From assembly GCA_963759805.1 (NCBI GenBank), contig CAVXAT010000006.1, positions 1 through 12,115 of the forward strand: DNA of 12,115 nt, given 5' to 3'. Shown one piece after another: positions 2 to 12,115 of this stretch (the first letter of the stretch is position 1; each line of letters opens with the position of its first letter). The notes under the pieces are model-generated. The model saw only the letters and a list, made by a program, of their open reading frames with translations, ran no database searches and was not told the DNA's origin. Source of the DNA: an uncultured bacterium (GTDB lineage Bacteria > Babelota > Babeliae > Babelales > RVW-14). Position numbers and translations under genes: made by a program.

Positions 2-3000
2 AACGCCAACATTGAAATAGACAGCACTCCGTATCCATATGGGTTAATTTTGGGAGATGGAACAGCACCGGATGATTTTGCACTAAACATTGATCCTGGA
101 GTAAACCTTACATTAAAATCAGGTAGATTATTTTATAACAATTATTCACCTAATCAAATTATGTTTGATAGCCCTTCATCTACTCTTTCAATAAACCCTC
201 AAAAGGGGGTCTATGCCACCAGAAGTTTCAATATAAATAACGGAACAATCGCCTCACCAAGTCCAAATGATATAAGCTTTGGTTGGAATACGGGAAAGTA
301 TATACAAACATCCAATATGCAGAGATATGATTATGAGCACTTAAGTGATTTTTATATTACCGGAACATTAATCCCCCCTACTCTTGTTCTTGATATCAAT
401 AACCAAATTTTAGCAAATCCGGGAACTGTAAATAAAAATATTCTGATAAATCAATCTAATAATCTAATTACGGGAATAGGTCACATATCCGGAGGGATAT
501 TATTCACAAATTATAATTCAACCGTTACCTGGGACATTCCTCAACCTTATACAGCAGGAAATATTAATTTGAATGGGGGCAGAATTAGATATACACAAGA
601 TTCCGGAATTGGACCGCAATATTCATTCGTGGGAAGTGGAACAATTGACTTAACAACAAAAAAATTTGAACTGGGATCAGAAGCAACCACTTGGACAGGT
701 AATTTTTATTGGATTGGTAACAGTGGAATAATTAGTCTAAATAATGATATAACAATCGATGGAACTTGGACCTTGAGCGGAAATATAATAATTAACGGCA
801 ACGGATATACAATGGATTTGGGAACAACAGGAACTCTTATTTTTGAGTATGGCGCACAAGTGGTTGCCAACAATGTTGCTTTCTATAATTTGACAAGACA
901 GAATAGAATCATATGCAAGGATAACAATTGTCAACTTGAACTCAATTATGTAGATATGGTATTGGCTGGCGATTATCTGTGGGACAAGGGCAGTATATAC
1001 ACCTATTTCGATAGTATAATTTTGCCTATTTCACAGGGCTTAGATTCACTCGTTACATTTTCTTATACGTCTCCGCAACCAGTTTACATTGACTCAGACG
1101 CATCTATTGCAATTTGGCCTGGGGTTAGATTTTCTACCGGACGTCCAAATTCAACGATAACTGATATAACACAGCAGCCCATAACTTTTGGTGATGTAGA
1201 GACCTCAAGAATTCTTCTTAACGGTGGAACATTGCACATAACCTCATCCGGCATGATTATGACAGGAGGAACAATTGAAGCTAATGATGCTTCTACTATT
1301 GAAATAGAAAATTCCACATATCCATATGGATTAATTCTTGGCAATAACACATCAGGTAATGATTTTTTATTAGATATTGAACCTGGAGCCCAACTTACTT
1401 TGACATCAGGAAAACTTTTTTATAATAACTATTCCCCAAACAGAATCGATTTCGATAGTCCTGGCTCTTCTCTGAATATAGTCCCTACAAATGGATTAAC
1501 GGCTGTAACTAATCTGACATTGCAAAATGGGACCATATATTCCCCCGGGACAGCGGTAATTCCATACAGTAATTCGTCCGTTATTTTCAGTAATATAATC
1601 AGAAATTTTGGTTCTCCATACTCTATTGCAACGGTTAGCACTCATGGTGTTTACCCTTCATACACATTAGCCAATGGAGACTCTTTTTATACAACCCAGG
1701 GATATACCATCAGAAATATTGTTGCAAGCTCAGGATCATCAACATTTGGTGGTACCGCTGAGTTTGGCGGAACTTTAAGCTTACAAAACAACACCGTAAC
1801 CCTGAACTCAATTTTAGAAACTCCACTTTTTTGTAGTGTGCCTTTAAATGGTGGAACTCTTATTTATGGAACAAATAGTTCATTTGGCGAATCCTACACT
1901 TTGACTGGATCAGGTAACGTACAGTTCAATGGAACAAGTCTTTCATTCGGTCCGCAAGACACTAGTATGACAAGCTCAATTTACTGGCAGGGCGTAACAT
2001 CCGGCCAAATTAATTTAAATGCCAAAACAGGCCTTTCAAGTACCTGGCAATTTGGTGGCAATATGATTATAAATGGTAACGGCAATGCTTTGGATCTGTC
2101 AGATGGAGGTATTTTGCAAATCAGGCCAGGGGCTACTCTTACGCTTCAAGATATTGCAGTAAAAGGTCTGGGACAAAATTTCGGTTCAATTAATTTCATG
2201 GATAATACAGGAACGTTAAGATTGTCCAATGTCTATATGGACCTTGATAACAATCTATCAACAACGATTGGTGGAGTTATTGTCTTCGGACCAACAACCG
2301 TCGGTGTAAAAAACTACAACTGGACACTTTCTCAAAACGCATCTATGACCGTTGATGGAGCAACATTATGGAAAGATCCACTCGATAAGATAAATCACGG
2401 TAGCATTAAATTTGGAACAGGATCGATAGGCAAATATCTCACGCTGATATACAGCGGCACAATAAAAACTTTATCTAATCTTGATATGTTGAGTACCGAC
2501 ACGACAATCCTTCAGATGCAAATCAGGAATAACAGTAACACCCTGCTGTACTTAAGCCGTACCAACTCCAACGCCCTTCTCTTCGGCGATAGAAACAGCA
2601 GCAATGCTATTGTTGCTCTGGACAGAACTGTTAGAACCGATAGCAATGCCTTTGTTTATGGCATCAAGAACAACAGCAACGCTATTATCAATCTGAACCA
2701 GATAACTGCTGAGCTTTCTGTTAACAACAGTAACGCTATTGTATCTTGGATTAAAGGCACAAGTAATGCAGTTATTAAGTTAAGCGGTACAGCTCCGGCA
2801 GTCCTGCCTCTCAACAACAGTAATGCTATTATAAAACTTACCGCAGAGATTCAAACCATAGACCACGGCCCAAGTGCCATTCAAATTAGTGCTCCTACAT
2901 ATACAATGTCATATGACATTTATCTAAGTACTGACCATACACTAAACATTCAAAACAGCTGTGTGCTTGATGGCAATGGACACATGATAAATTTTGCAAA

Positions 3001-3826
3001 AGATAGTCCAAACATTTTCACAACAGGGATGAATAGTAACGTCATTCTTAACAACGTTGTTCTGAAAAACTTTGATGATTCCTCAGTGCAACTGGGATCC
3101 GGTGCTACATTAACATTTGGTGAGGGATGCAGAATTGATCTTGCGGATGAGCAGGCAATGTCCATGCCATGGATATTCAGTGGGAATTCTGCAATCAATG
3201 GTTATGGCAACCCTCTTGATCTTGGTACGCAAAGCATCCAAATCATGCAAAGTGGAACCTTGACAGTAGAAAACATTATCCTGAGTGGCCTTGTAGACAA
3301 CAATGTACGATGCTTAGGTCCAAACGCAAATATTACATTCAAGAATGATACATTACAAATTACGGGAGATTACAGCTTTACGGCCGGGTCTCTGATATTC
3401 CAAGACGAAGTTGAAATCAAGTCTAATAATGAGCTTTCGCTTTCAAATGAATTTATTTACGCATCTGATCAAATATCGACAATAAACAGTTACTCAAGAT
3501 TGAAATTGGATTACGGCGTGTTCTTCTATTATGCACCAAGTATTGTGAGTAGAAATCTAATTGCGATGCAAGATGTCTCTTCAGAGTTATATTTGAATGG
3601 ATGCGCATTGGCAACATCATCAGTCGGAATGCGTTTAATAAAAGGAACATTGACAGTCGACAGTGACAACCAATTAATCGATGTTTTATTTGGAACACCA
3701 ACAAGTCTTGCACAAAGTATCTGTTTCGGTGATGGAACTTCAGCTGATGACTTGGCGATAAACATACTCCCAGGGGGGCAACTGAACATAGCCAACGGAA
3801 TACTTGATTATCAGAACGTAAACTAA
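2..3826 (+). CDS. Giant repeat surface/adhesin-like protein (5'-truncated): tandem ~430-aa beta-rich modules, an NSNA-repeat segment and a C-terminal module
   Basis: The frame is open from base 2 (NANIEIDSTPYPYGLILGDG...), so the TTG at 50 is not the true start. The internal repeat has a 1287-nt offset (ATTGAAATAG at 11 and 1298; YPYGLILG...SG[RK]LFYNNYSPN in both copies). The motif W-x-[LF]-[SG]-GN-xx-ING-x-G recurs at 767, 2045 and 3170. Composition is Asn/Gly/Ser/Thr/Ile-rich. The function is inferred. Confidence 0.85.
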   Translation, partial: NANIEIDSTPYPYGLILGDGTAPDDFALNIDPGVNLTLKSGRLFYNNYSPNQIMFDSPSSTLSINPQKGVYATRSFNINNGTIASPSPNDISFGWNTGKYIQTSNMQRYDYEHLSDFYITGTLIPPTLVLDINNQILANPGTVNKNILINQSNNLITGIGHISGGILFTNYNSTVTWDIPQPYTAGNINLNGGRIRYTQDSGIGPQYSFVGSGTIDLTTKKFELGSEATTWTGNFYWIGNSGIISLNNDITIDGTWTLSGNIIINGNGYTMDLGTTGTLIFEYGAQVVANNVAFYNLTRQNRIICKDNNCQLELNYVDMVLAGDYLWDKGSIYTYFDSIILPISQGLDSLVTFSYTSPQPVYIDSDASIAIWPGVRFSTGRPNSTITDITQQPITFGDVETSRILLNGGTLHITSSGMIMTGGTIEANDASTIEIENSTYPYGLILGNNTSGNDFLLDIEPGAQLTLTSGKLFYNNYSPNRIDFDSPGSSLNIVPTNGLTAVTNLTLQNGTIYSPGTAVIPYSNSSVIFSNIIRNFGSPYSIATVSTHGVYPSYTLANGDSFYTTQGYTIRNIVASSGSSTFGGTAEFGGTLSLQNNTVTLNSILETPLFCSVPLNGGTLIYGTNSSFGESYTLTGSGNVQFNGTSLSFGPQDTSMTSSIYWQGVTSGQINLNAKTGLSSTWQFGGNMIINGNGNALDLSDGGILQIRPGATLTLQDIAVKGLGQNFGSINFMDNTGTLRLSNVYMDLDNNLSTTIGGVIVFGPTTVGVKNYNWTLSQNASMTVDGATLWKDPLDKINHGSIKFGTGSIGKYLTLIYSGTIKTLSNLDMLSTDTTILQMQIRNNSNTLLYLSRTNSNALLFGDRNSSNAIVALDRTVRTDSNAFVYGIKNNSNAIINLNQITAELSVNNSNAIVSWIKGTSNAVIKLSGTAPAVLPLNNSNAIIKLTAEIQTIDHGPSAIQISAPTYTMSYDIYLSTDHTLNIQNSCVLDGNGHMINFAKDSPNIFTTGMNSNVILNNVVLKNFDDSSVQLGSGATLTFGEGCRIDLADEQAMSMPWIFSGNSAINGYGNPLDLGTQSIQIMQSGTLTVENIILSGLVDNNVRCLGPNANITFKNDTLQITGDYSFTAGSLIFQDEVEIKSNNELSLSNEFIYASDQISTINSYSRLKLDYGVFFYYAPSIVSRNLIAMQDVSSELYLNGCALATSSVGMRLIKGTLTVDSDNQLIDVLFGTPTSLAQSICFGDGTSADDLAINILPGGQLNIANGILDYQNVN
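2522..2839 (+). repeat. Coding repeat: eight xxSN[AT] (NSNA-type) units, several spaced 11 aa apart
   Basis: Translation shows NNSNT, TNSNA, NSSNA, TDSNA, NNSNA, NNSNA, GTSNA and NNSNA, each followed by hydrophobic residues. AACAACAG[CT]AA[CT]GCTATT recurs at DNA level. Confidence 0.85.
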
Positions 3827-8901: not shown

Positions 8902-9362
8902 CCAGTAACTAATCTGTATGGAATTAAAAGAGTTTTATATTCTACACTCCTCATATATTCAAACCTTTTATGTAAATCAAGGACATTCCCACCTAAAAGA
9001 GAGTCAGCCTTGGCTTGGAATTTTTCCTGTAGCGATGTATTACAAAAACAGTATTCATCCAAATATTCGGATGATAAGTTTATTGGATTACATGAAAATT
9101 TACTATAGATGAATATTTCATGTGCAATTTGATAAGATCGGAGCAAATCCGTTATTTTTGAAAGTTTTTCGTCTTCACTAATGGTTTGATCAAATTCTTT
9201 TAAATTTAGAAAATTATTTTTGATATCGTTGGCGAGATTAAAAGAACCCATAACTTGAGTGAGTACAGAAGTTTGCGCGTGCGCATCAATTTGACTCATT
9301 GCATGAGCCTGGGAGTATGCAATTATTAAGAAAGATAGAATTATAAAATTAATCTTGCTCAT
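8898..9362 (-). CDS. Hypothetical secreted protein
   Basis: Signal peptide MSKINFIILSFLIIAYSQAHA-M with an AxA cleavage motif. ATGA overlap with the ankyrin gene at 8898-8901. A strong promoter lies upstream. No recognisable domain. Confidence 0.72.
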   Translation of the reverse strand: MSKINFIILSFLIIAYSQAHAMSQIDAHAQTSVLTQVMGSFNLANDIKNNFLNLKEFDQTISEDEKLSKITDLLRSYQIAHEIFIYSKFSCNPINLSSEYLDEYCFCNTSLQEKFQAKADSLLGGNVLDLHKRFEYMRSVEYKTLLIPYRLVTG

Positions 9363-9422
9363 AGGATTCTCGTTAAAATTGTTTAAAATTGTTTTATTTA
9401 GCCTTTTTATCTAGGGTTTGCA

Positions 9423-9451
9423 ATTGTAGCAATAATAAAACAGGGTGTCAA
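9423..9451 (-). promoter_or_regulatory. Near-consensus sigma70 promoter for the secreted-protein pair
   Basis: Minus strand: TTGACA (9451-9446), a 17-nt spacer ending in TGC, then TACAAT (9428-9423). Confidence 0.72.
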
Positions 9452-9524
9452 AAGCTTTATTCTTTTAAATTAATTTGGATAAAGCCTATAAAAGTCACTT
9501 CTGATTAATAATAAATTTTTTAAC

Positions 9525-9554
9525 TTGACAATAATTGTATATTTTTGTTTTAAT
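9525..9554 (+). promoter_or_regulatory. Sigma70 promoter for the leader-asnA transcript
   Basis: TTGACA (9525-9530), an 18-nt spacer with TG at 9546-9547, then TTTAAT (9549-9554). Confidence 0.55.
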
Positions 9555-9600
9555 AAAGTTCAATAAAAACTTTTTTATGTAAATGAAATTTTAAAAATCG

Positions 9601-9708
9601 ATGTTGTCAAAAATGATGGCTTTAATCACATCCCAAATTATCAATCTTAATAATCAAAATAATAATAACCAAGAGATTGGTCGTGCTGGGGTGTTTTTAA
9701 AACATTAA
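9601..9708 (+). CDS. Putative asnA leader (attenuator) peptide, 35 aa: MLSKMMALITSQIINLNNQNNNNQEIGRAGVFLKH
   Basis: Hand translation gives 7 Asn codons in 9 consecutive codons (9643-9669). Alternative ATGs lie at 9613 and 9616. The ORF sits between the promoter and a terminator upstream of asparagine synthetase. No clear SD. Confidence 0.8.
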   Translation: MLSKMMALITSQIINLNNQNNNNQEIGRAGVFLKH

Positions 9709-9763
9709 GTAAAATAAAAAGTAAAGAATAAAAACCCCAGCTTAAAGCAAGCTGGGGTTTTTT
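9628..9763 (+). promoter_or_regulatory. Transcription attenuator: 1:2 protector, 2:3 antiterminator, 3:4 terminator
   Basis: 1:2 is ACATCCCA (9628-9635) with TGGGGTGT (9687-9694), plus ATCAATCTT (9640-9648) with GAGATTGGT (9673-9681). 2:3 is GCTGGGGT (9685-9692) with ACCCCAGC (9734-9741). 3:4 is the terminator listed next. Confidence 0.8.
9730..9763 (+). terminator. Intrinsic terminator in the asnA 5' leader
   Basis: AAAAACCCCAGCTT-aaagc-AAGCTGGGGTTTTTT is a perfect stem with a U6 tract, ending 30 nt before the asnA start. Confidence 0.9.
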
Positions 9764-9793
9764 AGTTTTAACCCCAAATGAAAGGATCTAACG

Positions 9794-10852
9794 ATGTTGT
9801 GTGGTAAGGCGTTAAAAGAAAAACATGGTGATTGTGAAAAATATTCACCAGCGATCGGATTACGTGATACAGAAAAGGCAATTTATCTGATTAAGAAGAG
9901 TTTTCAAGAGGAGTTGGCCAAAGCGCTTAATTTAACCAGAGTAACCGCTCCAATTTTTGTCAGGGAGGGGACGGGGATAAATGACGATTTAAATGGGATT
10001 GAGCGTCCGGTCTCTTTTGCGGTAAAATCTGATAATGATTCAAAGGCTGTGATTGTGCACTCCCTTGCAAAGTGGAAAAGAATGGCATTAGGAAGTCATG
10101 GATTTTTACCCGGTGAAGGAATTTATACTGATATGAATGCCATACGTGCAGACGAAGAGCTTGATGCACTGCATTCGTTGTACGTTGACCAGTGGGATTG
10201 GGAGAGGGTTATAACCAAGCAAGATCGTAACGTTGAATTTTTAAAGATGATAGTGCGCAAGATTTATGGAGCGATAGCTAGTACGCAGGCCGAAGTATCA
10301 ATGCATTTTCCACAGATAACATCATCTCTTCCCGCTGATATTCATTTTGTGCATGCGGAGGAACTTGAAGATTTATATCCTTCGTTGTCGCGCAAAGAAC
10401 GTGAAAATGAAATTTGTAAAAAATATGGAGCAGTTTTTGTTATAGGAATAGGTGGAAATTTGAAAGACGGCATTCCTCATGATGGCCGAGCCCCTGATTA
10501 TGATGACTGGTCAACCCCAACACATGATGGATTTAAAGGCTTGAATGGTGATATTTTGGTTTGGAATCCTGTTTTGAAAATGGCTTTTGAACTGTCTTCT
10601 ATGGGAATTCGTGTTGATAAAACAGCTTTGGAAGAGCAGCTTAGGATTGTTGGTAAAGAAGATAGAAAAAAATTAATGTTTCATAAAATGCTTCTGGACG
10701 GCAAATTGCCTTTATCTACCGGTGGAGGGATTGGTCAGTCAAGATTGTGCATGTTTTTATTGAAAAAGGTTCACATTGGTGAGGTTCAGGTGAGCGTTTG
10801 GCCGGATGCAATGGTCGGAAGTTGCCTAGAAAAAGGTATTTTTTTATTGTAG
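9794..10852 (+). CDS. asnA: Aspartate--ammonia ligase (asparagine synthetase A)
   Basis: Motifs GINDDLNG, VHSLAKWKR, YTDMNAIR, HSLYVDQWDWE, HDGRAPDYDDW, FELSSMGIRV, GGGIGQSRL and HIGEVQ. SD AAAGGA lies at 9781-9786. Confidence 0.97.
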   Translation: MLCGKALKEKHGDCEKYSPAIGLRDTEKAIYLIKKSFQEELAKALNLTRVTAPIFVREGTGINDDLNGIERPVSFAVKSDNDSKAVIVHSLAKWKRMALGSHGFLPGEGIYTDMNAIRADEELDALHSLYVDQWDWERVITKQDRNVEFLKMIVRKIYGAIASTQAEVSMHFPQITSSLPADIHFVHAEELEDLYPSLSRKERENEICKKYGAVFVIGIGGNLKDGIPHDGRAPDYDDWSTPTHDGFKGLNGDILVWNPVLKMAFELSSMGIRVDKTALEEQLRIVGKEDRKKLMFHKMLLDGKLPLSTGGGIGQSRLCMFLLKKVHIGEVQVSVWPDAMVGSCLEKGIFLL

Positions 10853-10901
10853 TTAGCTTATATCTGGTTACCTGAAAATCTAGTTATTTACTTGAAATTA
10901 T

Positions 10902-10928
10902 GGGCAGAAGATATGGTGTCTTTTGCCC
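10902..10928 (+). terminator. Hairpin downstream of asnA
   Basis: GGGCAGAAGA...TCTTTTGCCC with G-U pairs and no strong U-tract. Confidence 0.4.
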
Positions 10929-11016
10929 TATCAAATTACTGTTTTTAAACTAGAAGTTTTATGGTATCTTAGGTCATGCGAATTTTGATGTTTAACGCTT
11001 TAAAATAGGATGTACC

Positions 11017-11361
11017 ATGGCATCGACTACTGTGACGCTTGAAAAAATAGTTTCATTGTGTAAGCGCAGAGGATTTGTTTATCCATCAGCCGAGATCTAT
11101 TCAGGTCTTAACGGCGTGTATGACTTTGGTCCGCTCGGTGCGCTGCTTAAGCAAAACATCAAACATGCCTGGTTAGAATATATGACCAGTTTTCCCGAAG
11201 AGGTTGTGCTTGTTGACGGTTCAATTTTGGGTGCTCCGGATGTCTGGAAGGCGTCAGGTCACGTTGATAATTTTAGTGATCCACTGGTAGACTGCTTGGC
11301 TTGTAAAAAACGGTTCAGAGCCGATGAATTTAAGCTTGAGGATGGCTGCCCAAATTGTGGG
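11017..11361 (+). CDS. glyQS: Glycine--tRNA ligase, alpha2 homodimeric type; N-terminal ~115 aa only, truncated at the junction
   Basis: Motifs [56 protein letters not shown] and CPNCG, with SD TAGGA at 11006-11010. The translation after CPNCG, to the stop at 11499, is unrelated to GlyRS. Confidence 0.93.
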
Positions 11362-11665
11362 CCTCCACCGTCATCTTGTCGGTGTTCTCCAACATCGCGG
11401 TCTTACCGGCTGACCAGAGCGCAGACAACGCCGCTTGCATATCGACGGCCGGCGGCGTTTCGACCGTCGCCACGGCGGTCGGCGTCGAATCCTCGATAGG
11501 CGGCGAAGGCGAAGCCACGGCCGCAAGCCCGCACTCGATTTGCCGGCGAATCTCTTTCGGTGGCAGCCCACTATCAAGCCCCGATTCTTCGAGCAAGGCC
11601 ACGGCCAGCACCAAGGGGCAAGCAAACTCGGCAAGATTCGCGGCGGCAGAGTACAAGAGCCGGTT
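11362..11665 (-). other. GC-rich foreign fragment of a coding region (NRLLYSAAANLAEFACPLVLAVALLEESGLDSGLPPKEIRRQIECGL...), possibly a primase C-terminal (PriCT-like) helical domain
   Basis: The open minus-strand frame has a protein-like amphipathic helical pattern. The R-x-x-L-[FY]-x-AA ... GL-x-x-x-E-I-x-R-x-I layout recalls PriCT domains, judged by eye only. No native start or stop lies within the fragment. Confidence 0.35.
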
Positions 11666-12115
11666 CGCGCCCTGATCGCGCCTTTCAGGCGACCCCGGTC
11701 GGCGATGCCTGGGCGGATCCCGACTCGCATTTTGCTCGGGCTCGACAATCTCGGCCGCGACCTCATGAGCCGGCTGATCTATGGCGCGCGCATCTCGATC
11801 GGGCTCGCGCTGATGATCACCGCTTTTTCCTTCACCATCGGCATCATCCGGGTTCCCCGCGCGGTCGCCGGCGGCTGGGTCGATCAGGCGCTGTCGCGCC
11901 TCGTCGACTTCCTGCTCTCGATGCCGACGCTGATCTTCGCCTTCGTCGTCCTGTCGGTGCTCGGCACGGCGATCCCGGTGCTCATCATCACCATCGCGGT
12001 GCTGGATTCGACCAAGGTGTTCCGCCTCGCCCGCGCGGTCGCGATCGGGATCGTCAACCTCGAGTTCGTCGAGGCCGCGCGGCTGCGTGGCGAAGGCTGG
12101 TGGTGGATCGTGCGA
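11664..12115 (+). CDS. Partial DppC/OppC-family peptide/nickel ABC transporter permease with frameshifts, from a high-GC organism
   Basis: The frame from 11735 to the window end reads LGLDNLGRDLMSRLIYGARISIG...GGWVDQALSRLVDFLLSMPTLIFA...EFVEAARLRGE (EAA loop). The upstream part (GDAWADPDSHF at 11701-11733, and FAP.IAPF from 11664) is joined through frameshifts. Third positions are strongly G/C-biased. Confidence 0.85.

Follow-up and report, generated by a model that had tools for sequence, protein, structure and literature searches.

A candidate asparagine-sensing leader-peptide attenuator upstream of asnA in Babeliales

In enterobacteria the asnA gene is controlled by AsnC, and in Firmicutes the control is exerted by Asn T-boxes. 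The thrL leader mixes Thr and Ile codons. asnA is reportedly not included in the attenuator lists of Lopatovskaya 2010 and Vitreschak 2004. The mechanism of the classical leader-peptide attenuators trpL, hisL, pheL, thrL, leuL and ilvL is described in the accessible part of PMC1183508. The leader considered here resembles these, as presented there, in having leader codons for the downstream product, predicted mutually exclusive helices 1:2, 2:3 and 3:4, and an intrinsic terminator. It differs from the trpL/hisL set in that Asn codons are accompanied by Gln codons, helix 1:2 is variable, and sequence homology is absent. None of the Rfam families of Trp, His, Phe, Thr and Leu leaders reached the gathering score at the locus: His_leader scored 27.6 bits (gathering score 49) and Thr_leader 20.8 bits (gathering score 55), and these matches covered the hairpin only. 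The leader likely works like the trpL, hisL and thrL attenuators, yet belongs to none of their Rfam families.

Mixed regulatory codons within a single run are shared with thrL and with the M. tuberculosis ilvB1 leader, which contains LVVI according to the accessible part of PMC13236596. In those two leaders the codons correspond to end products of one pathway, whereas AsnA does not produce Gln, whose role here is putative. Another case of a computational attenuator with specificity beyond the textbook set is uORFC-8-2, a Cys-codon uORF motif before cysS predicted to be an attenuator (PMC8632094, available part); it differs from ours in the amino acid, gene and phylum. Neither "asn" nor "asparagine" occurs in the main text of that paper and the one supplement consulted. 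The same holds for the main text of PMC4833913, the leader-gene tables of which could still hold such ORFs, and "asn" does not occur in PMC10219788. As far as the accessible text goes, the nearest published case is the S. aureus sORF7, an Asn-rich uORF and leader-peptide candidate (bioRxiv 10.1101/2025.06.19.660503), which, unlike the babelial leader, precedes a gene of unknown function and has no link to an attenuator or asnA. The original prediction knew of no characterised Asn leader-peptide attenuator, and none was found in the literature searched for Asn attenuators and asnA control, represented mostly by abstracts; two comparative surveys may hold an earlier computational prediction.

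The analysed stretch of DNA (the window, 12,115 nt) belongs to contig C6 of genome G000, which has the size of 1.5 Mb and is 88.7% complete. We take its lineage to be Babeliales (TM6/Dependentiae). The features of the locus are collected in Table 1. The gene 3' of the leader had been identified as asnA, and its product indeed matches PF03590 and scores 420.5 bits against TIGR00669 (cut-off 292.8). The gene 5' of the leader runs on the opposite strand and has a promoter-like site of its own, and no co-directional gene enters the terminator. Hence the terminator at 9730–9763 closes no ordinary gene. Elsewhere in the window, positions 50–3826 encode a repetitive 1258-aa protein with no Pfam match. 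At 11360–12115 the GC content rises to ~65% and the glyS frame is broken, while a copy of the glyS start with 99.7% identity is present on contig C7; this is likely a chimeric contig end, and the attenuator finding is unaffected by it.

Table 1. Features of the asnA leader region (window coordinates; isolated helix energies in kcal/mol)
Feature	Coordinates	Strand	Comment
Divergent site resembling a promoter (11 of 12), for the minus-strand gene upstream	9423..9451	-	
Predicted promoter: -35 TTGACA, 18-nt spacer, non-canonical extended -10 TG-n-TTTAAT	9525..9554	+	
Leader ORF (start 9601, 35 codons; likelier start 9613, 31 codons)	9601..9708	+	recognisable Shine-Dalgarno absent
Segment 1; predicted partner in helix 1:2 is 9673-9701	9621..9648	+	-21.5 isolated; variable in relatives
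Regulatory run of 10 codons (7 Asn, 2 Gln, 1 Leu)	9643..9672	+	unique in genome, conserved in relatives
Segment 2, antiterminator 5' strand, core 9685-9692	9685..9698	+	predicted partners in 2:3 given in the text
Intrinsic terminator with its T tract (segments 3:4, core 9734-9741:9751-9758)	9730..9763	+	-20.9
Shine-Dalgarno-like GAAAGGA and asnA start	9779..9796	+	35 nt downstream of segment 4
asnA, aspartate-ammonia ligase, 352 aa	9794..10852	+	PF03590; TIGR00669 above cut-off

The 35-aa leader ORF with the NLNNQNNNN stretch is present exactly where the original prediction had placed it. The seven Asn in nine codons are there as well, and the description of the run as Asn only was too narrow, since it consists of Asn plus Gln. 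In all six frames of the focal genome, no other stretch of 9 codons holds 7 or more Asn, and the leader run also tops the ranking of 87 small-ORF/terminator pairs there. By-eye comparison with congeners suggests that the shared start is probably 9613 rather than 9601. Shine-Dalgarno-like words were sought before the three in-frame ATGs of the focal leader (9601, 9613, 9616) and in its two closest congeners, and none was found; such words are present in 9 of 19 leaders. A predicted hairpin (9603–9620) would cover the ATGs at 9613–9618. Conservation at the codon level favours the leader being translated. The promoter claimed before the leader stood in part: the −35 box at 9525–9530 is a perfect TTGACA, but the −10 element at 9546–9554 is non-canonical, lacking the conserved A, and the promoter scan made no call at 9525–9554. 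TTGAC[ATG] was found upstream in 17 of the 19 leaders, with 2.7 expected from shuffles.

The 8-mer GCTGGGGT occurs at 9685–9692 in the leader ORF and again at 9751–9758 in the terminator 3' arm, both copies facing ACCCCAGC at 9734–9741, as had been noted originally; those coordinates are correct. The intrinsic terminator expected between the leader ORF and asnA was found too. It consists of 14 pairs (9730–9762), six T (9758–9763) make up the U tract that follows the G:C stem, and the structure looks strong and bidirectional. Helix 2:3 is predicted to comprise 9685–9692:9734–9741 plus 9693–9698:9724–9729 and in isolation has the energy of −14.4 kcal/mol. The third helix that had been proposed (9628–9648 with 9673–9694) is present in the minimum free energy fold as 9628–9635:9687–9694 plus 9640–9648:9673–9681, and the Asn run sits in a predicted unstructured loop. 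The folding of the region has z = −4.08, none of 200 shuffles being as good. By strength of the upstream competing helix, the focal terminator ranks second of 100 terminator-like hairpins in the genome (ratio 0.94, median 0.41).

Judging from the sequence and from folding models, we estimate at about 0.85 the probability that the leader is a ribosome-mediated transcription attenuator for asnA that senses Asn shortage. Features of this class that can be recognised in the sequence are the ORF with cognate codons, the intrinsic terminator and a putative antiterminator helix 2:3, exclusive and covarying. From the parts, their order and conservation, the covariation of 2:3 and the presence of AsnRS in the genome we infer the following switch. 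The transcript would begin near 9561, and the leader would be translated by a ribosome trailing the RNA polymerase. At low Asn-tRNA the ribosome would stall at 9643–9669 and cover segment 1, leaving the RNA from 9685 onward free; segment 2 could then capture segment 3 (9734–9741) before segment 4 exists, and the polymerase would continue into asnA. When Asn is plentiful, the ribosome would cover segment 2 while over codons 26–35, or segment 2 would go to helix 1:2 after release. With segment 2 unavailable, helix 3:4 would form and the transcript would end near 9763.

The predicted behaviour was modelled by a stall scan, where the transcript was cut before segment 4 and the ribosome footprint was moved codon by codon. 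In the focal leader, segment 3 pairs upstream at 0.8–1.0 for the A site anywhere in the run and at 0.1–0.2 over codons 26–35. In agreement with the original prediction, constrained folding of this leader yields helix 2:3 when 9630–9682 is masked and no 2:3 when 9680–9720 is masked. The masking of segment 2 by the ribosome is clear over codons 26–35 and marginal at the stop codon, where pairing is 0.7 with a 15-nt upstream footprint. Among 17 rich leaders, by our own reading of the fold output, the fit was clear in 10, partial in four (L010, L011, L022, L023) and poor in three (L003, L008, L009). In the folding model, a stall on the regulatory codons frees segment 2 and passage covers it for the focal leader and for 10 of the 17 rich leaders. 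Sequestration of the antiterminator by helix 1:2 is predicted in the focal leader but is variable and not dominant in 10 of 19. Since naked RNA already prefers 2:3 in 10 of the 19 leaders, helix 1:2 is not a conserved necessity. The full transcript at equilibrium folds to the terminator even with a stalled ribosome (−32.2 kcal/mol vs −22.0 for forced 2:3). Therefore antitermination must be kinetic, resting on co-transcriptional timing.

The search for asnA covered 261 genomes of the phylum and produced 25 matches in 23 genomes. Four loci (L012, L018, L024, L025) could not be judged, as they lie at contig ends or comprise the 3' half only of a gene that is split. The layout of leader ORF, segment 2 and terminator is seen in 20 of the 21 readable loci, the focal one included, from five families. 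The original prediction had named the lack of an in-frame Asn run in homologous leaders as evidence against it; the run is retained, Asn/Gln-rich leaders accounting for 18 of the 20 with the shared layout. Tables of 19 loci omit L005, whose layout is counted among the 20. In L005 the terminator and asnA are separated by a deformylase-like gene. The 18 codons before segment 2 in the 17 rich leaders comprise 134 Asn, 63 Gln, two Asp and one Lys of 306, and genome-wide frequencies in the focal genome are 5.3% for Asn and 3.9% for Gln. The synonymous codons AAC and CAG occur 16 and 14 times, respectively, among 342 codons of the 19 leaders. The N-termini of the leaders differ in length and sequence. 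Segment 2 is in leader frame 0, 1 and 2 at 13, 1 and 5 of the 19 loci, respectively. The run appears to be conserved as codons and segment 2 as RNA, that is, under two separable constraints.

As segment 2 we took the 8-mer that paired best, and as the leader ORF the one richest in Asn; hence the counts are biased favourably, shuffles and slides serving as controls, and kin among the loci are not independent. So defined, helix 2:3 is paired in 145 of 152 cells, and the terminator core in 152 of 152 (19 leaders). Covarying helices, proposed originally as a check in homologues, were found: helix 2:3 covaries with changes on both sides in six loci (L004, L009, L011, L020, L022, L023). In an alignment of 12 sequences, which omits seven of the 19 loci (six with segment 2 misregistered by MAFFT, plus L013, off by one), helix 2:3 is 90.6% paired with seven cells of both-side changes, matched by 0 of 500 shuffles, and the partners slid along the sequence give 29–65%. 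The terminator helix scores like 2:3 on this alignment. The upstream duplex was better than all 200 shuffles in 17 of the 19 leaders; the exceptions were L009 (4/200) and L017 (11/200).

In two leaders, L017 (G031, the second asnA copy) and L021 (G175), the RNA scaffold is kept and the Asn run is lost, being replaced by a Ser/Thr-rich run in L017 and a Cys/His/Met-rich run in L021. Their AsnA proteins group weakly (0.62), and the leaders represent either decay or retuning. The one readable locus outside the shared layout is L016, with an Asn-rich ORF of different architecture; its AsnA branches outside the main Babeliales clade with the support of 0.97 on the tree built by FastTree from 22 Babeliales and 28 of 80 metagenome sequences. 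Further, in L016, L018 (G053) and L025 (G162) the AsnA belongs to a separate lineage, the next gene is asnS-like, and the Asn-rich leader ORF ends at the run, with a different hairpin layout; this leader is possibly of independent origin. In L015 the leader is intact and asnA is frameshifted, a short stretch being missing compared to homologues, which is either a pseudogene or an assembly error. An amino acid permease-like gene (141–1436) lies 58 nt after asnA in L007.

The leader pattern gave matches in 13 of the 261 genomes, of which 11 were at asnA and two inside a long coding frame. The latter two (L117 in G029 and L118 in G023) have a Gln/Asn-rich low-complexity stretch, which presumably resembles the N-terminal extension of Rho. 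Rho is encoded in the focal genome, in a 576-codon frame. The pattern search in genome contigs yielded eight matches, of which five were known asnA loci and three (L030, L032, L033) had neither asnA nor a terminator and were dismissed as chance. No matches were found in viral contigs. Two candidate paralogous leaders in the focal genome were rejected: the hairpin at C11:75767 closes a lon-like gene (73357–75699) and faces a convergent gene, and that at C18:13337 closes an ordinary ORF. NCBIfam contains no family for the leader peptide.

Outside the Babeliales clade, we considered 80 metagenome asnA loci, of which 74 had at least 300 nt upstream. The shared layout was absent from these 74. At least 4 Asn in 9 codons were found in nine of them vs four in the reverse-strand control, and no terminator followed the best ORF in any. 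Hence the leader type is not general. Four metagenome loci (L050, L054, L059, L072) have an Asn/His-rich leader ending with NNW-x-V-x-A-x-Q, 40–180 nt before asnA, and a hairpin without a U tract, with a pyrimidine stretch preceding a GGAG-type Shine-Dalgarno sequence. From their sequences, these look like translational rather than transcriptional attenuation.

In 11 related loci (L005–L009, L011–L014, L019, L022) a strong Shine-Dalgarno-like site just upstream of asnA starts not asnA but a separate short ORF, and asnA has its own start further downstream. The second mini-ORF begins 29–37 nt after the terminator in the nine loci where the distance is measurable. Codons 2–8 include at least four Asn or Asp in 10 of the 11 loci (50 of 77 codons in total, vs 0 of 474 comparable sites in the focal genome). 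The focal locus has no second mini-ORF, asnA itself starting at the distance given in Table 1. No shared structure was seen upon folding the second mini-ORF regions. The mini-ORF may couple asnA translation to the supply of substrate and product, or it may be a relic N-terminus. Long palindromic insertions, resembling mobile repeats, are located between the second mini-ORF and asnA in L006, L008 and L013.

Genomes bearing AsnA use AsnRS, as stated in the accessible part of PMC2330236. In our set, asnS scored above the cut-off in the focal genome and in 15 of the 16 asnA holders. With AsnRS present, free Asn can set the charging of tRNA-Asn. As with AsnC or T-box control, expression is predicted to track the Asn supply; unlike in those systems, no AsnC/Lrp domain was found in the focal genome at its completeness, and the T-box model RF00230 had no match at 9200–11200 up to E = 10. 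Two T-box-like leaders with a very short Stem I exist elsewhere in this genome (C15:481–675 and C3:24137–24331; 52.7 and 51.4 bits, gathering score 93). Both precede an aspartate-tRNA(Asn) ligase-like gene. The C15 copy is interrupted by an insertion sequence; the C3 copy has a frameshift and is truncated at the contig end. The region before asnS showed no Asn run, and by eye the AsnB-like gene of this genome sits among sugar-modification-like genes.

The same attenuator might act as a two-input sensor of amide nitrogen, with stalls on Gln codons also opening asnA. This is a refinement of the attenuator explanation and not an exclusive rival, and we hold it slightly short of an even chance. 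Gln codons (63 of the 306) occur at least once in each of the 17 rich leaders as both CAA and CAG, while Lys, one mutation from Asn, appears a single time. GlnRS was not found in any of the 61 genomes searched, and gatB is present in the focal genome. Glutamine synthetase was found in eight of the 61 genomes, all of them outside the 16 asnA holders, although the mutual exclusion of asnA and glnA is not significant (P = 0.07) and kin are not independent. In L020, gatA (18–1496) directly follows asnA and hence would be under the same leader, but this adjacency is observed in one locus only. CAA may merely keep the loop unstructured. According to the available part of PMC2330236, the GatCAB of mesophilic bacteria favours Gln, by a factor of 130 in H. 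pylori. Asn is thus probably a poor donor for Gln-tRNA, which weakens indirect reporting on Asn by the Gln codons. Overall, the odds that the Gln codons add a second sensory input are about even. A wider scheme, in which a lineage with a reduced genome, apparently without glutamine synthetase and GlnRS, gauges its overall amide-nitrogen state through ribosomes, one attenuator reads Asn and Gln, the second Asn/Asp mini-ORF of many relatives adds a substrate check at the level of asnA translation, and the scaffolds of L017 and L021 have been retuned to other codons, is tentative and in our opinion rather doubtful.

Readings that dispense with Asn sensing by attenuation were weighed against the same data. 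The AAT repeats could be filler in a general sensor of translation rate or coupling, or in a vestigial, stuck switch with asnA expressed via terminator leak. Such an origin would suit an AT-rich genome, the missing Shine-Dalgarno and weak −10 of the focal genus, the loss of the run in two relatives and the +1 frame of the repeat, poly-Ile and often open. Still, an ATG in the Ile frame is found in 2 of 19 leaders only, the third frame is closed within five codons in all 19, and the run has no counterpart in the genome and specifies the amino acid made by the enzyme downstream; with the covariation of 2:3, this makes the filler or vestigial reading unlikely.

Direct sensing of a metabolite by the leader RNA (a riboswitch), or a nascent TnaC-like arrest peptide, seems very improbable, even though the NNQNN core is well conserved among the leaders. 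No Rfam family reaches its gathering score at the locus, the matches being sub-threshold and to hairpins; the run lies in the unstructured loop; the length and flanks of the peptide vary (27 to about 66 aa); and induction by a shortage of the encoded amino acid is simpler. The promoter-like site, the ORF and the strong, bidirectional-looking terminator could belong to an independent small gene or sRNA with no role in the control of asnA. The chance of this is slight in the extreme: the leader accompanies asnA through differing gene neighbourhoods, no plus-strand promoter-like site was found between 9666 and asnA, where only ~30 nt are available, and the antiterminator would be purposeless.

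If the attenuator reading is true, the textbook set of amino acids read by attenuation grows to asparagine and possibly glutamine. The leader is a 250-nt module, ready to use, for which natural variants and compensatory changes exist, and may be of use as a part of an Asn biosensor. Babeliales are protist parasites with little metabolism or regulation. An Asn switch kept in such organisms would imply that the Asn supply in their niche fluctuates enough to merit sensing, and that this phylum couples transcription to translation.
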